UHGV virus genome: UHGV-1361754
Direction: 5' to 3' (one strand)
From: a virus
DNA length: 39,505 nucleotides
A model generated the notes under the pieces. The model saw only the letters and a list, made by a program, of their open reading frames with translations. It did no database searches and had not been told where the DNA came from. The stretch's first letter is position 1. Each line of letters begins with the position of its first letter. Shown here piece by piece: positions 10,701-38,501 of this stretch. Made by a program: the position numbers and the translations under genes.

Positions 10701-12132
10701 TTATTTCATTAATCATATTTACGGCGCTGGCTTGCAGATTTCCAACCGCCCCCTCAATCGTAGCTGTGGAACCTGCTGCCTTTTTAGCTACATCAGTCAT
10801 ACCTAATTGCATGAATGCTTCATTCAATTCTTCGGCAGAGATTTCTCCGTTTGCCATAGCCTCGCGGAAGTCTCCGTCAGTATAAGCGCCCATTTCTTTC
10901 AATGCTTGTTGAATTTTCCCTGAAGCGCCCGGAATGGCATCCGCAATCTGATTAAAGTTTTCAGTTGTTAATTTGCCAGCACCGACAGTTTGTGTCATTG
11001 CCATTGCTACCGATTTGAACGTATCTGCGTTACCACCTGAAACGGCATTGACATTACCGATTGCCTGCGTTAGACCATCAAAGTCTTTCACACCGTTGGC
11101 TGCCAACTGTGCAGTCGTATTCATTACGTCGCCTAGTTCATAAACCGTTTGGTCGGCGTAATCTTTCATCACTGTTTTAGATTCTTCAATTTTTGAATTA
11201 TCTATACCAGCAAATTGCATTGTTTGAACAAACTTGTCCATTGAATCGGAAGCCTCTACTGCTTCATCTGTCAACCCCATGAAACTGTTAACAACACCAC
11301 TAACTGCTTGTGAAGCTAATCCAGCAACTGCACCAAACGAAAATGCGCTTTTTAGCGAGCCTAATTTGTCTTTTAGCCCGTCCAGTTTCCTAGCTGACCT
11401 TGTGGACTTGTCGCCAAAATCTTCTATTTCTTTTCCTGATTGATCACTGGACCTTTCGAGTGTTTCTAATTGTCTACTGGATATTTGGCTTTGTCGTTCT
11501 AACTTTTCTAGTGCCCTTTTTGCATCTTCGGTTTCATCTGCTGAATCGCCAAACTCATCAGCCATCAGTTTCACAACTTTGCGCTGTTCTTCGATAGCTT
11601 TCTCGGATAATTCCGTTTGTTTGGCTAGCCCTTTTTGTTTTGCTTCAAACGCACCAGATTCATCACCAGCGGCTTTCAACGCTTTGACTTCGGCGTTCAT
11701 TTGCCGTTCATTTTCTTTGATTTCATCAGATAAATCATTGACGGCTGTTTTGGAATACACCAATTCTTTTTTTGTGTCATTCAACTGGCGACTGTAAGCA
11801 TTATATTTTGCGGTAGCATTGTTTATCTGTGTGTTAAGGTTAGCAACTTGTTTCGATTCCTCGCCATACTTGCTAATCGCTTCATCACGGCGCTTTGTTA
11901 ATTCTCTTACTTTGGCGTTTTGCCCTTCCATAACCGTAGACAAGTCTTTCGTCTTTTGACTAAGTGCTTCGTATGAACGTCCTGCTGAATCATAAGCCTT
12001 TAGATTGGCACGCATATTCGACTCAGCTTGTTTGACTTTCGCATTGATTTCGTCCAGCGTGTTACCAAAATTAGTGCTATCTAAACTAATCCCTAACTTG
12101 ATATTTCCTGCCGGTTGTCCTTTTCCTGCCAT
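7765..12132 (-). CDS. Tail tape measure protein with C-terminal peptidoglycan hydrolase domains (M23 peptidase + SLT lytic transglycosylase)
   Basis: 1455 aa. Coiled-coil N-terminus and repeated W/F-containing helical motifs (TWDKLVNWV, TWNKVVGWV, TVFNWFSEL). C-terminal HxxxD (KHNAIDIA) and HxH (HVHL) M23 motifs, then SLT motifs (RTESNGNP ... GLLQMIDPTF). Confidence 0.9.
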   Translation of the reverse strand: MAGKGQPAGNIKLGISLDSTNFGNTLDEINAKVKQAESNMRANLKAYDSAGRSYEALSQKTKDLSTVMEGQNAKVRELTKRRDEAISKYGEESKQVANLNTQINNATAKYNAYSRQLNDTKKELVYSKTAVNDLSDEIKENERQMNAEVKALKAAGDESGAFEAKQKGLAKQTELSEKAIEEQRKVVKLMADEFGDSADETEDAKRALEKLERQSQISSRQLETLERSSDQSGKEIEDFGDKSTRSARKLDGLKDKLGSLKSAFSFGAVAGLASQAVSGVVNSFMGLTDEAVEASDSMDKFVQTMQFAGIDNSKIEESKTVMKDYADQTVYELGDVMNTTAQLAANGVKDFDGLTQAIGNVNAVSGGNADTFKSVAMAMTQTVGAGKLTTENFNQIADAIPGASGKIQQALKEMGAYTDGDFREAMANGEISAEELNEAFMQLGMTDVAKKAAGSTATIEGAVGNLQASAVNMINEIINAFGKGNITSLIGDIGKGIDNLTTKIKPAMESIKNVAQPVFDMLKKGAEVAASAFGTLFGTLDGDQAKQGFDILTKIFPPEMVTFAQDTIEKIKNAVKTLFDVFKGKADMGDVLAKLGFSPETISKIKDVFDNLKTYFDGTMTTIKNGIEIGWQIAKGIFDTLSPYIMPIIEKIGGAFSKIGKSMTTFWNENGKQIIEAIKNFFTFIQPVVKIVMDLVMGFIDNIIGLVEGIMNVIQGAIKIFTGLFTGDFSKMWEGVKQLFWGSIQAVWNWIQILFFKRILEGVKGLWTGFSGSIKGLWESTKTFFIEGISNTWDKLVNWVMNLLGKAGNLKTTFGNFIQNLWNSVKSFFNNGVGDTWNKVVGWVKNIFNKAIELKNNVSDAIGNLWNGIKDSFRSGIDTVFNWFSELPTKMKDAIIGGKNAIVDAFKSIFNAALKAIGEPVNAIIHGASWVLEKLGAEPLQEWDVPQYANGTPNGGHPGGPMMVNDGRGAEAVITPTGQAFIPRGRNVVLNAPKGTHVLTAEETAYMTGNKAPRYRYAKGTGFFGNLWNNVKGFAGDVGNKLKDVAGDVWDFVTDPGALARKVLNGLGVLEGLVKYPLDVGKGILSKATEALTNKITELFSSGSLDTSMGIQGVYKYLADVAVAVMKKFPGFQVTSGYREGDPYSHGKHNAIDIALPGVVNGSPRYTEAANYAFEKFANKIGYVITNGKVRDRSGQSGTGVHDDWRTWPDGDHYDHVHLNGVRDPQGGLVSGGDSVGGSGVERWRNVAIRALKMTGQYSTANLNALLNQMRTESNGNPRAINNWDINAKNGTPSKGLLQMIDPTFRQYAMPGFNSNIYDPLSNILASIRYALSRYGSLRNAYRGHGYANGGIVNQHQIAEIAEGNKPEIIIPLDKAKRSRAMQLLSIAMDKLGVSPKTYGNATTVSSDYEILEAIEKQAATTNQLLSLLLAFFKGNSRTDRDLALDIQKILVRRM

Positions 12133-14109: not shown

Positions 14110-14441
14110 TTTGAAACCTCTTTTGCAATGACAGTGGTGAAATCTTTGGCAAACTCGCCCTTGGTGATCGTGATAATCTCAAAAGTTTTGCCTTTCCAAC
14201 GCACTTTCATATCATTGGTTAGCTCTGATTTTTGTTGGTAGCGGATAATGAACGTCAGTGTTCCTTCCAAAGCCGTACCAATCGACGTCTTAACGTCACT
14301 CAAGCGTTGTGTTTGAACGCAAGACCAACACGAAAAAACAGTCTCAGGTGTGGTGACCAGCTGGCCGTCCTCGTCCTTGACTGTCGTATCCTTTATAAAG
14401 TCAATACGTTGACTTAGGTCACTCGTCTGTATTAACGCCAT
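14106..14441 (-). CDS. Head closure / head-tail adaptor protein (putative)
   Basis: 111 aa. Synteny after the gp6-like connector gene. Confidence 0.45.
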   Translation of the reverse strand: MALIQTSDLSQRIDFIKDTTVKDEDGQLVTTPETVFSCWSCVQTQRLSDVKTSIGTALEGTLTFIIRYQQKSELTNDMKVRWKGKTFEIITITKGEFAKDFTTVIAKEVSK

Positions 14442-14703
14442 GATCTAGCCCCCTCAATTGATGAATTAAAGCAGTCACTCCAAACGGAATCTCCGCGAAT
14501 GCTTTTTCGCTTGTAGCAATCCGGTTCTCATACCAGTGAGACACCAGCAACGTGACCGCATAGTTAAACCGTTCATCATCTGTTTTTTCGACTTCGATCG
14601 ATCCAAGAATAAATTTTTCAGCCGTGGACACCAACATTTTTAAAAGCTCGTCGTCCAGATCATGATCAATGCGAAGGTATGTTTTTAGTTCTGCCAGTTC
14701 CAT
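14419..14703 (-). CDS. Head-tail connector (gp6-like DNA packaging protein)
   Basis: 94 aa, MELAELKTYLRIDHDLDDELLK..., typical gp6-like start. Immediately after the capsid gene region. Confidence 0.55.
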   Translation of the reverse strand: MELAELKTYLRIDHDLDDELLKMLVSTAEKFILGSIEVEKTDDERFNYAVTLLVSHWYENRIATSEKAFAEIPFGVTALIHQLRGLDHGVNTDE

Positions 14704-14714
14704 TCAATCACCGC

Positions 14715-14981
14715 CTATTCAGCAGTTACGGTAACTTCACACACCGCAGTTTTTCCGTTTGCAGTTGTTGCAGTGATTGTTGCTGTACCAGCTGCAATAC
14801 CTGTGATTTTGCCTTGAACCGGCGTTACTGTGGCAATTGCCTCATCGCTAGAACTGTATTTAACCGATTTGTCCGTTGCGTCAGCTGGCAAGACAGTCGC
14901 TGACAGTGTTTCTGATGCCCCCACCGCAAGCGTAGTCGTTGTTTTGTTTAACGTTACGCCGGATGGGTCTACGCTTTTGGG
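14715..14981 (-). CDS. Big_2 (bacterial Ig-like) domain, reached by a putative -1 programmed frameshift at C_CCA_AAA (14975-14981) and fused to the C-terminus of the major capsid protein
   Basis: The 69-aa ORF has only a GTG start and no RBS. It is in the -1 frame relative to the MCP, and that frame is open back to 15008, overlapping the last 12 MCP codons. The slippery heptamer lies 2 codons before the MCP stop. Big_2 signature: KITGIAAGTATITATTANGKTAVCEVTV. Confidence 0.5.
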   Translation of the reverse strand, partial: PKSVDPSGVTLNKTTTTLAVGASETLSATVLPADATDKSVKYSSSDEAIATVTPVQGKITGIAAGTATITATTANGKTAVCEVTVTAE

Positions 14982-16159
14982 CCAAGCGTCACGTAGAACC
15001 CAGCTGCGTTATCTGCCACTTGAACGTCAAAACGAATGAAACCTGCCAATAATTGACCATATACATCGTTATCTACCCAACGTACTGAAGCTTGTTGGCG
15101 GTCGAAGTATTTAGCAAAAAGTGAAGGGTCGCCCACGAATGCTACTTTGTCACCTGCTTTTGTTCCAATTACATCATCCGCCATTACAACAACTTCACGC
15201 CCTAATAGTTTGTAACCCGAAGCAACTGTAACGTCTTGCTGTAACAAGTAACGTCCGTCATTATCTTTCATTTTGTCTAACTCGTTGAAGAAGCTTTGAG
15301 AAGCAATGAATTTCACGTTGTAAGCAGGATCAATAGCAACATTCACGATGTCTTTTAGATCATCAATCGTTGTAACAGCTTTCGCAGGTGCTGTTTGTAA
15401 TTTTTTAGCGATTTCAACGTTTGATGTATTCAAAGATTGACGTTGGATATTTTCAGCGACCAATCCGCCTAAATCGATATCTGAATCGTCTAATGATTCT
15501 TGAGAAACTGGAATGTATCCACGGTAAGTGTCAATTTCGTAGTTTACTTTTGTAAATTCAGGGTTAGCTAACGCTGGGTTTTTAGCCAATTCAGCCACAG
15601 AGATCATTTTATTTTTGTTAGCTCTCAAAATTGGATATGATCCTGTACCTGTTGTTACTGGCACACGTCCTACGTGTTGACGTAAATCGACAACTGTTTC
15701 GGGTTGTTTTTCTGGTTTAGTGATACGGTCAACTGGAATAACTGCTTCTGCTCCGACTGTTGTCAATCCGTCGCGTTTTTCTCCTTTTGTACGAATGAAT
15801 TGATTGATTGAGCGTGTGTATGTTTCTTTTTTGTCATCTAAGATTACTTCCATTGATCTTTTCTCCTCTTTGTCTTTTTTGTCGATCGGATTTGTGTTGC
15901 TTGTTGGTTCTGTACTTTCTTGTTTTTCTGGTTGTGCTTGTTGCTCTTTAGGTTTAGCTTCTTGAATTTCAGTTGCTTTTGTTTCTTCGTCCAACTCTTT
16001 CAATTCATCAGCTAAATCTTTTTTCAATTGATCGTCTGTTTCTTTCGATTCTTTTGCTTCTTTGATTTTTGCTAATAAGTCCTTAGCCGTCTCTAAATCG
16101 CCTGAATCCAGCGCCTGTTGCGCTTGTTCTTTCAATTTCTCAATATCCAATGTGTTCAC
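14969..16159 (-). CDS. Major capsid protein (HK97 fold)
   Basis: 396 aa with an acidic/Pro-rich N-terminal delta-like region then the capsid core. Follows the prohead protease gene. Confidence 0.85.
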   Translation of the reverse strand: MNTLDIEKLKEQAQQALDSGDLETAKDLLAKIKEAKESKETDDQLKKDLADELKELDEETKATEIQEAKPKEQQAQPEKQESTEPTSNTNPIDKKDKEEKRSMEVILDDKKETYTRSINQFIRTKGEKRDGLTTVGAEAVIPVDRITKPEKQPETVVDLRQHVGRVPVTTGTGSYPILRANKNKMISVAELAKNPALANPEFTKVNYEIDTYRGYIPVSQESLDDSDIDLGGLVAENIQRQSLNTSNVEIAKKLQTAPAKAVTTIDDLKDIVNVAIDPAYNVKFIASQSFFNELDKMKDNDGRYLLQQDVTVASGYKLLGREVVVMADDVIGTKAGDKVAFVGDPSLFAKYFDRQQASVRWVDNDVYGQLLAGFIRFDVQVADNAAGFYVTLGPKA

Positions 16160-16188: not shown

Positions 16189-16734
16189 CTAGTAATTTAG
16201 AAGTTCTAGCTCTATCTGTAGTTTTCGTTTTTCTTTTTCATTGATTACTCGTTTCAATGATCGTTGCGCTAAGACTGCATCCGTTCCTTCGTAAGCCGGA
16301 ATCGAAACAATCGATATTTCGAATAATTCGTCGATCTTATTTAGATTGCGGATATACATTCCATCTTGGTTTTCCCACGTTTGAGAATCATCTTTTACGG
16401 CAAAACCGAACGAACATTCGTTGATATCACCACGTTTTATGGATTCGTACAAATCGTTGGCGTAAGAAGTATTTGGCAGTTGACATCTGAAATAAAGTCC
16501 TACGTCATCCACTTCCAACTCTAGCGTTTGCGATGACGTTCTTCCTAAAACCATACTTGAATCATGATCGACAAAACAGCGAACATCTGATAAATCGGTC
16601 GTATCCAACGCTTGTGGTGAAATTATTTCTTTGAAGCCCCCCAAATCTTTGCTTAATGAATTAAATTTCATTGCGTAGCCCTCAATCGTTCGATTGTCCG
16701 TTGACTGGATTTCCGCTAAACTCCGAATTTCCAT
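16189..16734 (-). CDS. Prohead protease (HK97 family, S78/U35)
   Basis: Motifs GYAMKFN, GGFKEIISPQAL, CFVDHDSSMVLGRT. The likely start is the internal ATG 16734 (or GTG 16740) preceded by AAGGAGGTG. The long 16827 start would overlap the portal gene. Confidence 0.8.
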   Translation of the reverse strand: MEIRSLAEIQSTDNRTIEGYAMKFNSLSKDLGGFKEIISPQALDTTDLSDVRCFVDHDSSMVLGRTSSQTLELEVDDVGLYFRCQLPNTSYANDLYESIKRGDINECSFGFAVKDDSQTWENQDGMYIRNLNKIDELFEISIVSIPAYEGTDAVLAQRSLKRVINEKEKRKLQIELELLNY

Positions 16735-17866
16735 TTCCACTATTCCCACCTCCTTTCGCTGTGGTTTTCGTGTACAAAACATCCCCATTAGGAATGCTTG
16801 GCAATCCGTAATAATCTCTGACCTCATTAATCAGTAGATAACCGTCTCCGCCATTGCCGTCTTCCATTGCTTTATTCATCCTAGAAGCCTTGTCTTGACC
16901 AGTTAGCGTTGAGAAATCCAATTCCACATTGATTCCTAACTTAATTGCTAACTCGTCTGTAATCATCTGTGAGAGTGCCCTAAGCGTACTAGAAACGTAG
17001 GAATCGTTAGCCGAATCGTCTTTGGTATTGACTAACTCCATACCAAAACGTGACAAAGGAATGCCGAACGCTTTAGCAATTTGTTTTGTCGAGTACACGT
17101 TGTTTTGAATCATCTTCAAAATATCCGTATTTAGCTCAAACTGTTTGAATTCCTGTGTATCGTCCAAAACAATTACGCTATTAGCGTTTGAAGCACCGCT
17201 GTTTACTTCTTCAAAGTCTTGCTTAATTTGCTTTTTAGACTTGTTATTCAGCGTACCTTTATTGAGCTTCAAAACTCCGCCTGCTTGAATCCCCTTCTTG
17301 AAGAAGGAGCTTAGCATTTTGTTCCCATTGTCGAGCATGGAAAGTTCTGTTTTGAGTGCATCCAATGGACTGATACCGGTTTTTCCGTTTACAGTTATAT
17401 ATTTGAAGTGCAACATCTCGCTAGAATCAACACGGTACAAATTTCCTGCTTTGTTTGTGTACTCATACCGCAACACACCTGTCTCTAAATCTTCGTAAAC
17501 GACGACTTGTGACGGTTTAGCAAACTCTAAGCTATTTTCATGAATGATCGCAAAAGCATTCCCTGACAAAAGCATTTGAGCCGTGATAGCAAACATGAAA
17601 GAATATGGTGTCATACTTGCGTTTGGGCACTTGTTCAACATGTCTAACTTTCGAATGTCTGCTTGCTTATTATCGGAAAACTTGAACTTGCTAGCGGCAA
17701 TATCTCCAGCCAATATCTTTACCGCTGTAAACACATCAGACTGTTCTAGTGCCGTTTCTCCGTCAAAGTTGATGGTCGTGTTCCCATTTACAGTTGAAAT
17801 GAAGTCGAGCATTGTACTCGAACGACTGGACAAGCTACGTTTTTCCGTTTGGAAAAATAAACCCAT
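16682..17866 (-). CDS. Portal protein (HK97 family)
   Basis: 394 aa, directly downstream of terL. Gly/Asn-rich C-terminal tail. Confidence 0.85.
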   Translation of the reverse strand: MGLFFQTEKRSLSSRSSTMLDFISTVNGNTTINFDGETALEQSDVFTAVKILAGDIAASKFKFSDNKQADIRKLDMLNKCPNASMTPYSFMFAITAQMLLSGNAFAIIHENSLEFAKPSQVVVYEDLETGVLRYEYTNKAGNLYRVDSSEMLHFKYITVNGKTGISPLDALKTELSMLDNGNKMLSSFFKKGIQAGGVLKLNKGTLNNKSKKQIKQDFEEVNSGASNANSVIVLDDTQEFKQFELNTDILKMIQNNVYSTKQIAKAFGIPLSRFGMELVNTKDDSANDSYVSSTLRALSQMITDELAIKLGINVELDFSTLTGQDKASRMNKAMEDGNGGDGYLLINEVRDYYGLPSIPNGDVLYTKTTAKGGGNSGNGNSEFSGNPVNGQSND

Positions 17867-23462: not shown

Positions 23463-23667
23463 TGATATAATAAACTTGTTGGGTTTATTGAATCAGTCGG
23501 AGCGATCCGGCTTTTTTATTGTTTTATCTGTTTTAACTGTGCTAAACTTTTCGAGTAGTGAGGTTACGCTCACTATCCATATACATGTTGAGCTATCTGG
23601 CGGAAAACAGATGGCTCACTATTTCAATATTCTGCTAAGGACAGCCAGTGGTCGGCTGTCTTTTTTA
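23463..23667 (+). ncRNA. Candidate structured small RNA: extended -10 promoter, three consecutive hairpins, intrinsic terminator
   Basis: TGaTATAAT at 23463-23471. Hairpins at 23556-23575, 23590-23617 (10-bp stem with one GU) and 23640-23660 (GACAGCC-agtggtc-GGCTGTC) followed by TTTTTTAT. No credible ORF, since the 80-aa track ORF reads through all the hairpins. Confidence 0.3.
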
Positions 23668-23757
23668 TATTTTAATGAGAAGCCTTACTTATTTTTTTAT
23701 CTTTATTACGAAAAATGATATTATCTATTGATAATAAAGCGTATAGGAGATGGTTGA

Positions 23758-38262: not shown

Positions 38263-38501
38263 ATCATCATTCTCCTTAACATAAACTGAACTAATTATAG
38301 TTAATGATTTCACAATAAGTCAATTTAAATATATATTTTTTTATTTTATTTTTATAAATCTTTTCCTTAATTCGAATAAAGTCAGATGTAACTGCATACA
38401 AACATTTGAGAGTATAAAATATTTTGTGTAAATAGAAAAAAGGAAGTCCCTTCTGTAGAATAAAGTTACCACACCCATTCACAGAAAAGAGGACTTCCCT
38501 A

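Follow-up and report, generated by a model that had tools for sequence, protein, structure and literature searches.

The window analysed here is the whole stretch of 39,505 nucleotides (nt) of the virus genome UHGV-1361754, and the system in question is the 3' end of its major capsid protein gene, where a second open reading frame (ORF), placed in the -1 frame, overlaps the end of the capsid frame and encodes a bacterial immunoglobulin-like (Ig-like) domain of group 2 (Big_2). The fusion of this domain to the capsid protein very probably results from programmed -1 frameshifting by ribosomes close to the 3' end of the capsid frame. The features concerned are listed below in coordinates of the window.

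14969-16150, minus strand: major capsid protein gene, HK97 type, read in the 0 frame and ending ...TLGPKA before the stop
14975-14981, minus strand: slippery heptamer C_CCA_AAA (X_XXY_YYZ), with Pro codon CCA in the P site and Lys codon AAA in the A site
14969-14971, minus strand: 0-frame stop TAG, one sense codon (GCG) past the heptamer
14715-14975, minus strand: -1 frame extension, 86 codons plus TAG (14717-14715), its first codon AGC re-reading the last A of the heptamer
14733-14960, minus strand: Big_2 domain, extension residues 6-81
14920-14967, minus strand: predicted stimulatory stem-loop, 48 nt, beginning 7 nt past the heptamer

Capsid gene, slippery site and -1 frame extension

The capsid protein was assigned to the HK97 type by its matches to Pfam Phage_capsid PF05065 (E = 1.7e-25, 90.4 bits, above the curated cut-off of 24.2) and to PHROG 10 'major head protein' (E = 3.6e-67), and by the protease and portal genes that adjoin its gene upstream. 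It is 100% identical to an Enterococcus lactis protein, and its best 120 database relatives are Enterococcus proteins wherever the source is named. The capsid ORF given by the ORF program begins at GTG 16159 and encodes 396 amino acids (aa), the length retained in the first-pass annotation, a reading of the sequence that preceded this analysis; a start at TTG 16150 gives 393 aa. TTG 16150 is probably the start used, since the Shine-Dalgarno (SD) sequence AAGGAG sits 8 nt 5' of it and a length of 393 aa is found in many database homologues, whereas GTG 16159 has no SD sequence (anti-SD duplex energy of +1.6 kcal/mol). The gene proposed in the first-pass annotation therefore stands, with a length that is probably 393 and not 396 aa.

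Read on the minus strand, the last codons of the capsid ORF are ...ACG CTT GGC CCA AAA GCG TAG. In the -1 frame, a stop at 15011-15009 is followed by an open stretch that starts at 15008 and runs to the TAG at 14717-14715. The conceptual product of a slip at the heptamer reads ...FYVTLGPK/SVDPSGVTLNKTTTTLAVGASETL...TVTAE (the slash marking the change of frame), with 86 residues added; the extension starts with SVDPSGVTLNK, which gives the junction ...FYVTLGPK/SVDPSGVTLNK.... SVDPSGVTLNK and TTTTLAVGASETLSATVLPADATDK are predicted peptides of the -1 frame, and ...YVTLGPKSVDPSGV... is the predicted stretch across the fusion junction. Upstream of the heptamer, no SD-like stimulator was seen by eye.

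Slippery heptamers lying in frame were scanned in all ORFs of the window of at least 80 aa, which returned 68 sites. The capsid site leads into the longest -1 ORF; the runner-up falls in a spurious ORF antisense to the tape-measure gene, the third is the classical tail-chaperone site, and at the other heptamers the -1 frame stops within about 50 codons, nearly always within about 30. The arrangement at the capsid slippery site is more than chance. The tail-assembly-chaperone site belongs to an ORF of 103 aa at 12658-12347 on the minus strand (Pfam Phage_TAC_19, E = 7e-22), with the heptamer A_AAA_AAG at 12377-12371, seven codons ahead of the stop of the ORF; its -1 product would have 175 aa and end at 12132, the start of the 1455-aa tape-measure gene. 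By its sequence this is a classical -1 frameshift site, so that the same phage appears to use such shifts. The PHROG 187 label 'head-tail adaptor' that this tail-chaperone ORF receives looks like a misnomer.

The extension matches Pfam Big_2 PF02368 (E = 2e-18) over profile positions 4-79 of 79, as well as PHROG 215 'structural protein with Ig domain' (E = 1.1e-30), and it matches by sequence solved Big_2 domains such as the C-terminal domain of lambda gpV (2l04, E = 2e-6). An AlphaFold2 prediction run without an alignment on the last 114 residues of the fusion had a mean predicted local distance difference test (pLDDT) of 53, and this model is too poor to inform on the fold. No ATG occurs in the extension. 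For the in-frame start candidates GTG 14924, TTG 14891 and GTG 14744, the computed energies of the anti-SD duplex are +0.4, -0.5 and -3.5 kcal/mol, to be compared with -6.4 to -18.9 kcal/mol at 9 of the 10 annotated starts tested in the module, the exception being GTG 16159. With regard to an independent decoration gene of the Hoc or gpD kind, the in-frame starts are thus devoid of an SD sequence, and a GTG start truncates the domain.

What the first-pass annotation had described at this junction was recovered: the capsid 3' end with C_CCA_AAA in the X_XXY_YYZ register (here placed at 14981-14975) and the -1 frame open from 15008 to 14715, whose coordinates agree exactly. Its Big_2 domain is borne out by the full-length Pfam match, and its view that an ORF with no ATG and no ribosome-binding site (RBS) is unlikely to be an independent gene agrees with the SD duplex energies.

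Conservation of the junction and of the predicted stem-loop

The comparison was performed on relatives from independent assemblies, belonging to at least 5 Enterococcus species, whose capsid proteins are at least 76% identical to that of the window (76-96%): 4 genome loci (E. durans, E. dongliensis, E. hailinensis and E. hermanniensis), 22 IMG/VR loci and a 'Listeria' phage. The heptamer, the TAG one codon further on and an intact -1 ORF of 86 codons were found together in 27 loci (the window counted), with 22 distinct extensions. No fused capsid-Big_2 ORF was found among the best 120 database homologues (95-100% identical), which argues that the arrangement is no sequencing or assembly error. 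An in-frame capsid-Big_2 fusion was also sought in two close relatives with matches running slightly past residue 396 (H36 and H37); in H37, the one of the two with an annotation, a 419-aa head protein is followed directly by the adaptor and carries no added domain.

The heptamer is unchanged in 32 of 32 related junctions, CCA and AAA never varying. The codon on its 5' side is GGC, GCC, AGC, TCC, ACC or GAC (Gly, Ala, Ser, Thr or Asp), with C invariably as its third base, the share of NNC codons in those codon families being 8-37% in the structural genes of this phage (GGC 0.23, GCC 0.10, ACC 0.12, TCC 0.08); the codon on the 3' side varies (GCG, GCA, GGA, GTA, GAA). Since the residue ahead of the heptamer varies and yet its third base stays C, selection appears to act on the nucleotide and not on the amino acid. 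In Latilactobacillus phage TMW 1.1397 P1 the architecture is kept with the heptamer A_AAA_AAA instead.

Within the extension, variable columns are distributed over codon positions 1, 2 and 3 as 25, 20 and 56, and the ratio of nonsynonymous to synonymous differences per site (pN/pS) is 0.18-0.22 in the most divergent pairs (pS 0.39-0.45). This third-position bias and a pN/pS of about 0.2 indicate that the extension is under purifying selection and translated in the -1 frame.

The first-pass annotation had suggested a search for a downstream stem-loop, and one was found at 14967-14920, after a spacer of 7 nt. It consists of an outer helix of 6 bp, a middle helix of 5-6 bp and an inner helix of 4 bp (CCCAUC.CGGCGUA.CGUU-loop-AACG..UACGC...GGUGGG), with a minimum free energy of -18.1 kcal/mol, and GTG 14924 lies within its 3' arm. 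RNAalifold returned the same consensus structure on 14 distinct sequences. Pairing is conserved, 95.4% of the cells being paired compared with 29-56% when the 3' partners were slid by 1-3 columns; compensatory double changes occur at two pairs (C-G to U-A and U-A to C-G), and one further pair changes from G-U to A-U. Synonymous change is low in extension codons 1-19, which cover the spacer and the stem-loop (pS 0-0.19, versus 0.49-0.79 in codons 20-84), and this contrast is significant in all but one of the 5 deep pairs (Fisher p between 2e-5 and 1.5e-3). Hairpins are also found shortly past the same heptamer in phage A2 and in a Lacticaseibacillus prophage (L024), with unrelated sequences. 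Inspection by eye revealed no sequence with which the loop would obviously form a pseudoknot.

Frameshift reading, alternatives and known systems

The proposed mechanism is as follows. Most ribosomes would read ...GGC CCA AAA GCG TAG and release the 393-aa capsid protein. A fraction would stall with tRNA-Pro at the P-site codon CCA and tRNA-Lys at the A-site codon AAA, probably because of the stem-loop 7 nt downstream, and both tRNAs would then slip one base back, onto CCC and AAA. The next codon would be AGC, the TAG would be bypassed, and 86 residues would be added, made of a short linker and one Big_2 domain. The virion would be a mix of short and long subunits, with a minority of capsid positions bearing an outward-facing Ig-like domain. 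C-terminal fusions to the HK97-fold capsid protein 10B of T7 are displayed on the capsid exterior, and from such general knowledge the Ig-like domain is expected to be exposed on the capsid surface; by the same kind of analogy its function may be weak adhesion to carbohydrates or surfaces, or capsid stabilisation, as proposed for phage Ig-like domains.

The closest known case is phage A2 of Lactobacillus casei, in which -1 frameshifting is documented in head and tail genes, that in the head gene yielding a second, essential capsid component (Garcia et al. 2004, as reported in PMC5009743). Its gp5A/gp5B pair has the identical heptamer C_CCA_AAA followed by GCG and a stop, the junction CCCAAAAGCGTAR being common to both phages: the A2 head gene ends ACC CCA AAA GCG TAA, and its -1 frame, PK/SVTPDGVTLSQ..., is also a Big_2 domain with the junction pattern PK/SV..GVTL seen here. 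The A2 capsid protein shares 41% identity with the present one over 315 aa (E = 2e-80, PHROG 10), the extensions are homologous Big_2 domains (45% identical, E = 6e-14), and the genes follow one another in the same order (portal, protease, capsid, extension, adaptor). The two systems differ in host (Lacticaseibacillus for A2, Enterococcus here), in stem-loops that are not alignable, with predicted spacers of about 9 nt in A2 and 7 nt here, and in a second cassette that A2 carries on its major tail gene (L007:7927, motif CCCAAAAGCGTAG), whereas the tail gene of the window is without one; moreover, the A2 frameshift is experimentally proven and the present one is predicted from sequence. The features that define an A2-type system were found here: a heptamer near the capsid 3' end, an overlapping -1 ORF without a start, a Big_2 extension, and homology to A2. 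The RNA structure expected about 5-9 nt downstream is found at 7 nt, although its folding energy is only z = -1.5 and its function is predicted. By this comparison, the phage appears to be a homologue of the established A2 system in another host genus, unannotated in databases.

Three other explanations of the junction were weighed. The Big_2 ORF could be an independent small gene, encoding a separate decoration protein from GTG 14924 or TTG 14891, possibly by reinitiation; a 69-aa ORF from this GTG (14924-14715) is indeed listed by the ORF program, its truncated product still matches Big_2 (E = 8e-16), and such ORFs are annotated separately in Latilactobacillus phages as 'hypothetical protein' or 'major capsid protein'. 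We consider this highly improbable, given the duplex energies of the two starts (+0.4 and -0.5 kcal/mol) beside those of the annotated starts, the burial of GTG 14924 in the 3' arm of the conserved stem, and the absence of a start codon at the equivalent position in A2 and other relatives. A product begun at this GTG would also lose Big_2 profile positions 4-16, the first strand, its match beginning at 17, whereas in all relatives the 17 codons ahead of the GTG run on from the slip site without a break and are conserved at the protein level. A joining of the frames by transcriptional slippage, with RNA polymerase stuttering on the A run, deserves hardly any credence: a run of As is present, and it reaches seven, a length at which bacterial polymerase slippage occurs, in Latilactobacillus TMW 1.1397 P1 and in L157, but it counts only four As here and in nearly all relatives, which is too short for slippage to any appreciable extent. 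Such slippage would moreover leave unexplained the conserved C before CCA and the stem-loop at 7 nt, which are both specific to tandem tRNA slippage.

The extension might finally be a non-expressed relic of a broken in-frame capsid-Big_2 fusion, or the result of an assembly error, as could be thought from the related Big_2 domains fused in frame to structural proteins in 45 of the 80 loci surveyed below and from the extra 1-nt deletion of one relative (L028). This is very unlikely in view of the same out-of-frame arrangement in 27 independent loci and across four genera, of an 86-codon ORF kept intact, with a pN/pS of about 0.2, even where synonymous divergence reaches 45%, and of an invariant heptamer whose first C is selected, with 0 of the 120 closest homologues fused. 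Read-through of the stop codon was rejected as impossible, the 0 frame meeting further stops 4 and 6 codons on.

Programmed -1 frameshifting, which the first-pass annotation had also proposed, is thus supported by the conserved heptamer and frame, the selected extension, the lack of a start with an SD sequence, the stem-loop and the homology to A2. Signal, frame, domain, conservation and selection are established by sequence analysis and comparison, and it is by homology to phage A2 that we infer actual slipping and the incorporation of both capsid forms.

Several observations weigh against this reading. At the IMG/VR locus L028 (L028:2679-2760) a single-base deletion right after the capsid stop, GACCCATCC to GACCATCC, puts the Big_2 ORF in the +1 frame with respect to the capsid gene; this reflects a sequencing error at a homopolymer or else a loss of the extension in nature. 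Capsid homologues at most 58% identical, e.g. that of Brochothrix phage BtpYZU02, have neither the heptamer nor the extension; the appendage would therefore be an accessory of this lineage, and these homologues, together with the shifted frame of L028, indicate that the extension is not universally required. As for the stem-loop, its folding energy is unexceptional (z = -1.2 to -1.5, 17 of 200 shuffled sequences folding as well), its covariation consists of two pairs among closely related sequences, a number reached by 77 of 500 shuffles, and a scan of the whole window against Rfam matched no frameshift element. One deep pair (L009) shows no synonymous contrast, and the contrast in the others could partly reflect mosaic recombination and not RNA constraint. 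Because thermodynamic significance would be unconvincing by itself, the case for the stem-loop is made from its position, conservation and covariation. No report of this frameshift in Enterococcus phages was found in the literature, and for this phage and its Enterococcus relatives the frameshift is deduced from sequence and comparison. A literature search on CCCAAAA gave no relevant title among the matches listed; the paper on phiEf11 (PMC5221750) concerns a different ORF, with a speculative A_AAA_AAA site.

Recoding at the 3' end of capsid genes is known beyond A2. The Cps proteins of Listeria phages A118 and A500 are extended by a -1 shift and that of PSA by a +1 shift (Zimmer 2003 and Dorscht 2009, as reported in PMC5009743). 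As here, these phages have two capsid proteins with different C termini. A118 differs by another module, with a separate scaffold gene and a capsid protein of 299 aa, and the domain found in its -1 frame is of the HeH/LEM type (Pfam E = 1e-11) and not Big_2, while PSA shifts in the other direction. Ig-like C-terminal extensions made by -1 frameshifting are known for A2 and T3, the T3 extension being Ig-like (PMC5009743), and in T7 the longer capsid subunit amounts to about 10% (PMC3185693). The 10A/10B proteins of T7 and T3 likewise come from a capsid gene of the HK97 fold in which a -1 shift close to the end gives a minor longer subunit, but these are unrelated podoviruses of Gram-negative hosts with another slippery site and stimulator, and the extension of T7 is dispensable and not Ig-like.

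Surface-exposed Ig-like appendages at the C terminus, often substoichiometric, are also described on SPP1 gp17.1*, lambda gpV and the A2 tail protein (PMC8718954). These cases share the domain class and the logic of the present one, but on the tail tube and not on the capsid; SPP1 gp17.1* results from a +1 shift that adds an FN3 domain, and lambda gpV from an in-frame fusion. Appended domains of this kind are reportedly the subject of a study by Fraser et al. in 2006 ('Ig-like domains on bacteriophages'). T7/T3 10A/10B and SPP1 gp17.1* are functional analogues of the system described here. Decoration proteins of the T4 Hoc type carry Ig-like domains on the capsid exterior as well. Hoc is encoded by a gene of its own and attaches to the capsid once this is assembled, whereas here the domain would be covalently attached to a subset of the subunits through recoding.

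Efquatrovirus phages such as Enterococcus phage IME196 (L003, 3914-4114), whose capsid proteins are about 50% identical, have no frameshift extension; a separate 66-aa gene with a strong RBS lies right after their capsid gene instead, under the RefSeq label 'major tail protein'. The product may be an independent head-decoration protein. The small gene of the IME196 type was considered as a homologous arrangement and rejected, being a separate gene with its own RBS.

The best 120 database homologues of this capsid protein, which is very common in Enterococcus faecium/lactis/durans prophages, are all the short 393-396-aa form, and the Big_2 ORF is uncalled or mislabelled in related records ('hypothetical protein', 'major capsid protein'), hence the value of the present reading for annotation. 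The recoded product predicts a second capsid species with a surface Ig-like domain, of relevance for virion proteomics, for the adhesion of enterococcal gut phages to surfaces or mucus, and for phage display and engineering.

Modular junctions in other phages and gene neighbourhood

The mechanism itself is already known, and the wider point is the evidence that the recoding signal moves together with the domain. A junction survey was performed on 80 viral loci carrying a Big_2 domain related to these extensions. The domain is in frame with an upstream ORF of at least 120 codons in 45 of the 80 loci, and such fusions to structural proteins indicate that it works as an appendage at the C terminus; in 31 loci it is placed in the -1 frame of the upstream gene and in 1 in the +1 frame, with 3 unclassified. 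In the -1 class, C_CCA_AAA is present at 26 loci, no canonical heptamer at 3, and C_CCA_AAG, C_CCA_AAC and A_AAA_AAA at one each. The spacing of heptamer, one codon and stop is kept in 28 of the 31 loci of this class (CCCAAAA in 26, CCCAAAC in one and AAAAAAA in one), and it is also that of the capsid and tail genes of A2 and of Latilactobacillus phages.

The upstream genes belong to three major-head PHROG families (10, 422, 544) and to four major-tail families (88, 584, 820, 158). A C_CCA_AAA junction precedes Big_2 on heads of PHROG 10 and 422 and on tails of PHROG 88 and 820; among the variants, A_AAA_AAA is found on PHROG 544, and C_CCA_AAG and C_CCA_AAC on PHROG 584 and 158. Phage A2 has the junction on both its head and its tail gene. 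At locus L156, the capsid gene (PHROG 422) is non-homologous to that of the window, and when L156:1388-1800 was compared with window positions 15070-14660, identity was 0.3 upstream, 0.95 over the 57 nt from the heptamer through the stem-loop and 0.69 over the remaining Big_2 ORF, and was lost past its stop. The Lacticaseibacillus prophage L024 (3658-3860) has the same CCCAAAAGCGTAA and a hairpin, followed by a different extension in the -1 frame, which resembles an HeH domain by eye and has no match in Pfam.

The modular junctions, the L156 breakpoint and the swapped extension of L024 make it plausible that the recoding signal travels with the appendage. We regard as evenly poised the stronger proposal that heptamer, codon, stop, stem-loop, linker and Big_2 domain form a cassette that passes as one piece between unrelated capsid and tail genes in siphophages of Firmicutes. 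Such a cassette would contrast, plausibly, with the 'chance landing' of an out-of-frame Ig domain, a view of these extensions that is quoted in PMC5009743.

Both related and unrelated Firmicute capsid genes were also seen to have a short HeH/LEM-type domain in an alternative frame past the stop. This frame is -1 in A118 (L006, 6060-6240; Pfam HeH E = 1e-11), L023 and L024, and an HeH domain in the +1 frame past the capsid stop occurs in Weissella and Leuconostoc prophages (E = 1e-10; the set with the domain just past the stop comprises L018, L019, L020 and L023). Recoding that appends a DNA-binding-type domain to a capsid protein has received less discussion than its Ig counterpart.

Two genes flank the capsid gene and its extension directly.

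16189-16827, minus strand: head maturation protease (PHROG 80, E = 3.5e-63), directly upstream of the capsid gene
14419-14703, minus strand: head-tail adaptor Ad1 (PHROG 40, E = 4.2e-29), the next gene

The adaptor gene has its own SD sequence (duplex energy of -10.4 kcal/mol) and begins 12 nt past the stop of the extension; a portal gene (PHROG 12) is found in the upstream neighbourhood of the capsid gene. The order of the module (portal, protease, capsid, adaptor, head closure, neck, terminator, major tail, chaperone, tape measure) is that of the usual siphophage head module. Judged from its sequence, the element is most likely a temperate phage or prophage of the Enterococcus faecium group.

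The only close phage records, at 92% nucleotide identity to the region, are two 'UNVERIFIED_ORG' Listeria phages from wastewater, 'Listeria phage LM 4-11-1 / 4-14-1' (L001, OR846730.1, and OR848098.1). Their Listeria host label is doubtful, since the nearest protein relatives are all Enterococcus. Rfam matches were obtained in the window for 'Enterococcus sRNA 1C' (98.6 bits, 23556-23671, plus strand) and for 'Enterococcus sRNA 64' (48.7 bits, 38434-38501, minus strand); as they lie in the same 39.5-kb window as phage structural genes, these two catalogued small RNAs may be prophage-borne.

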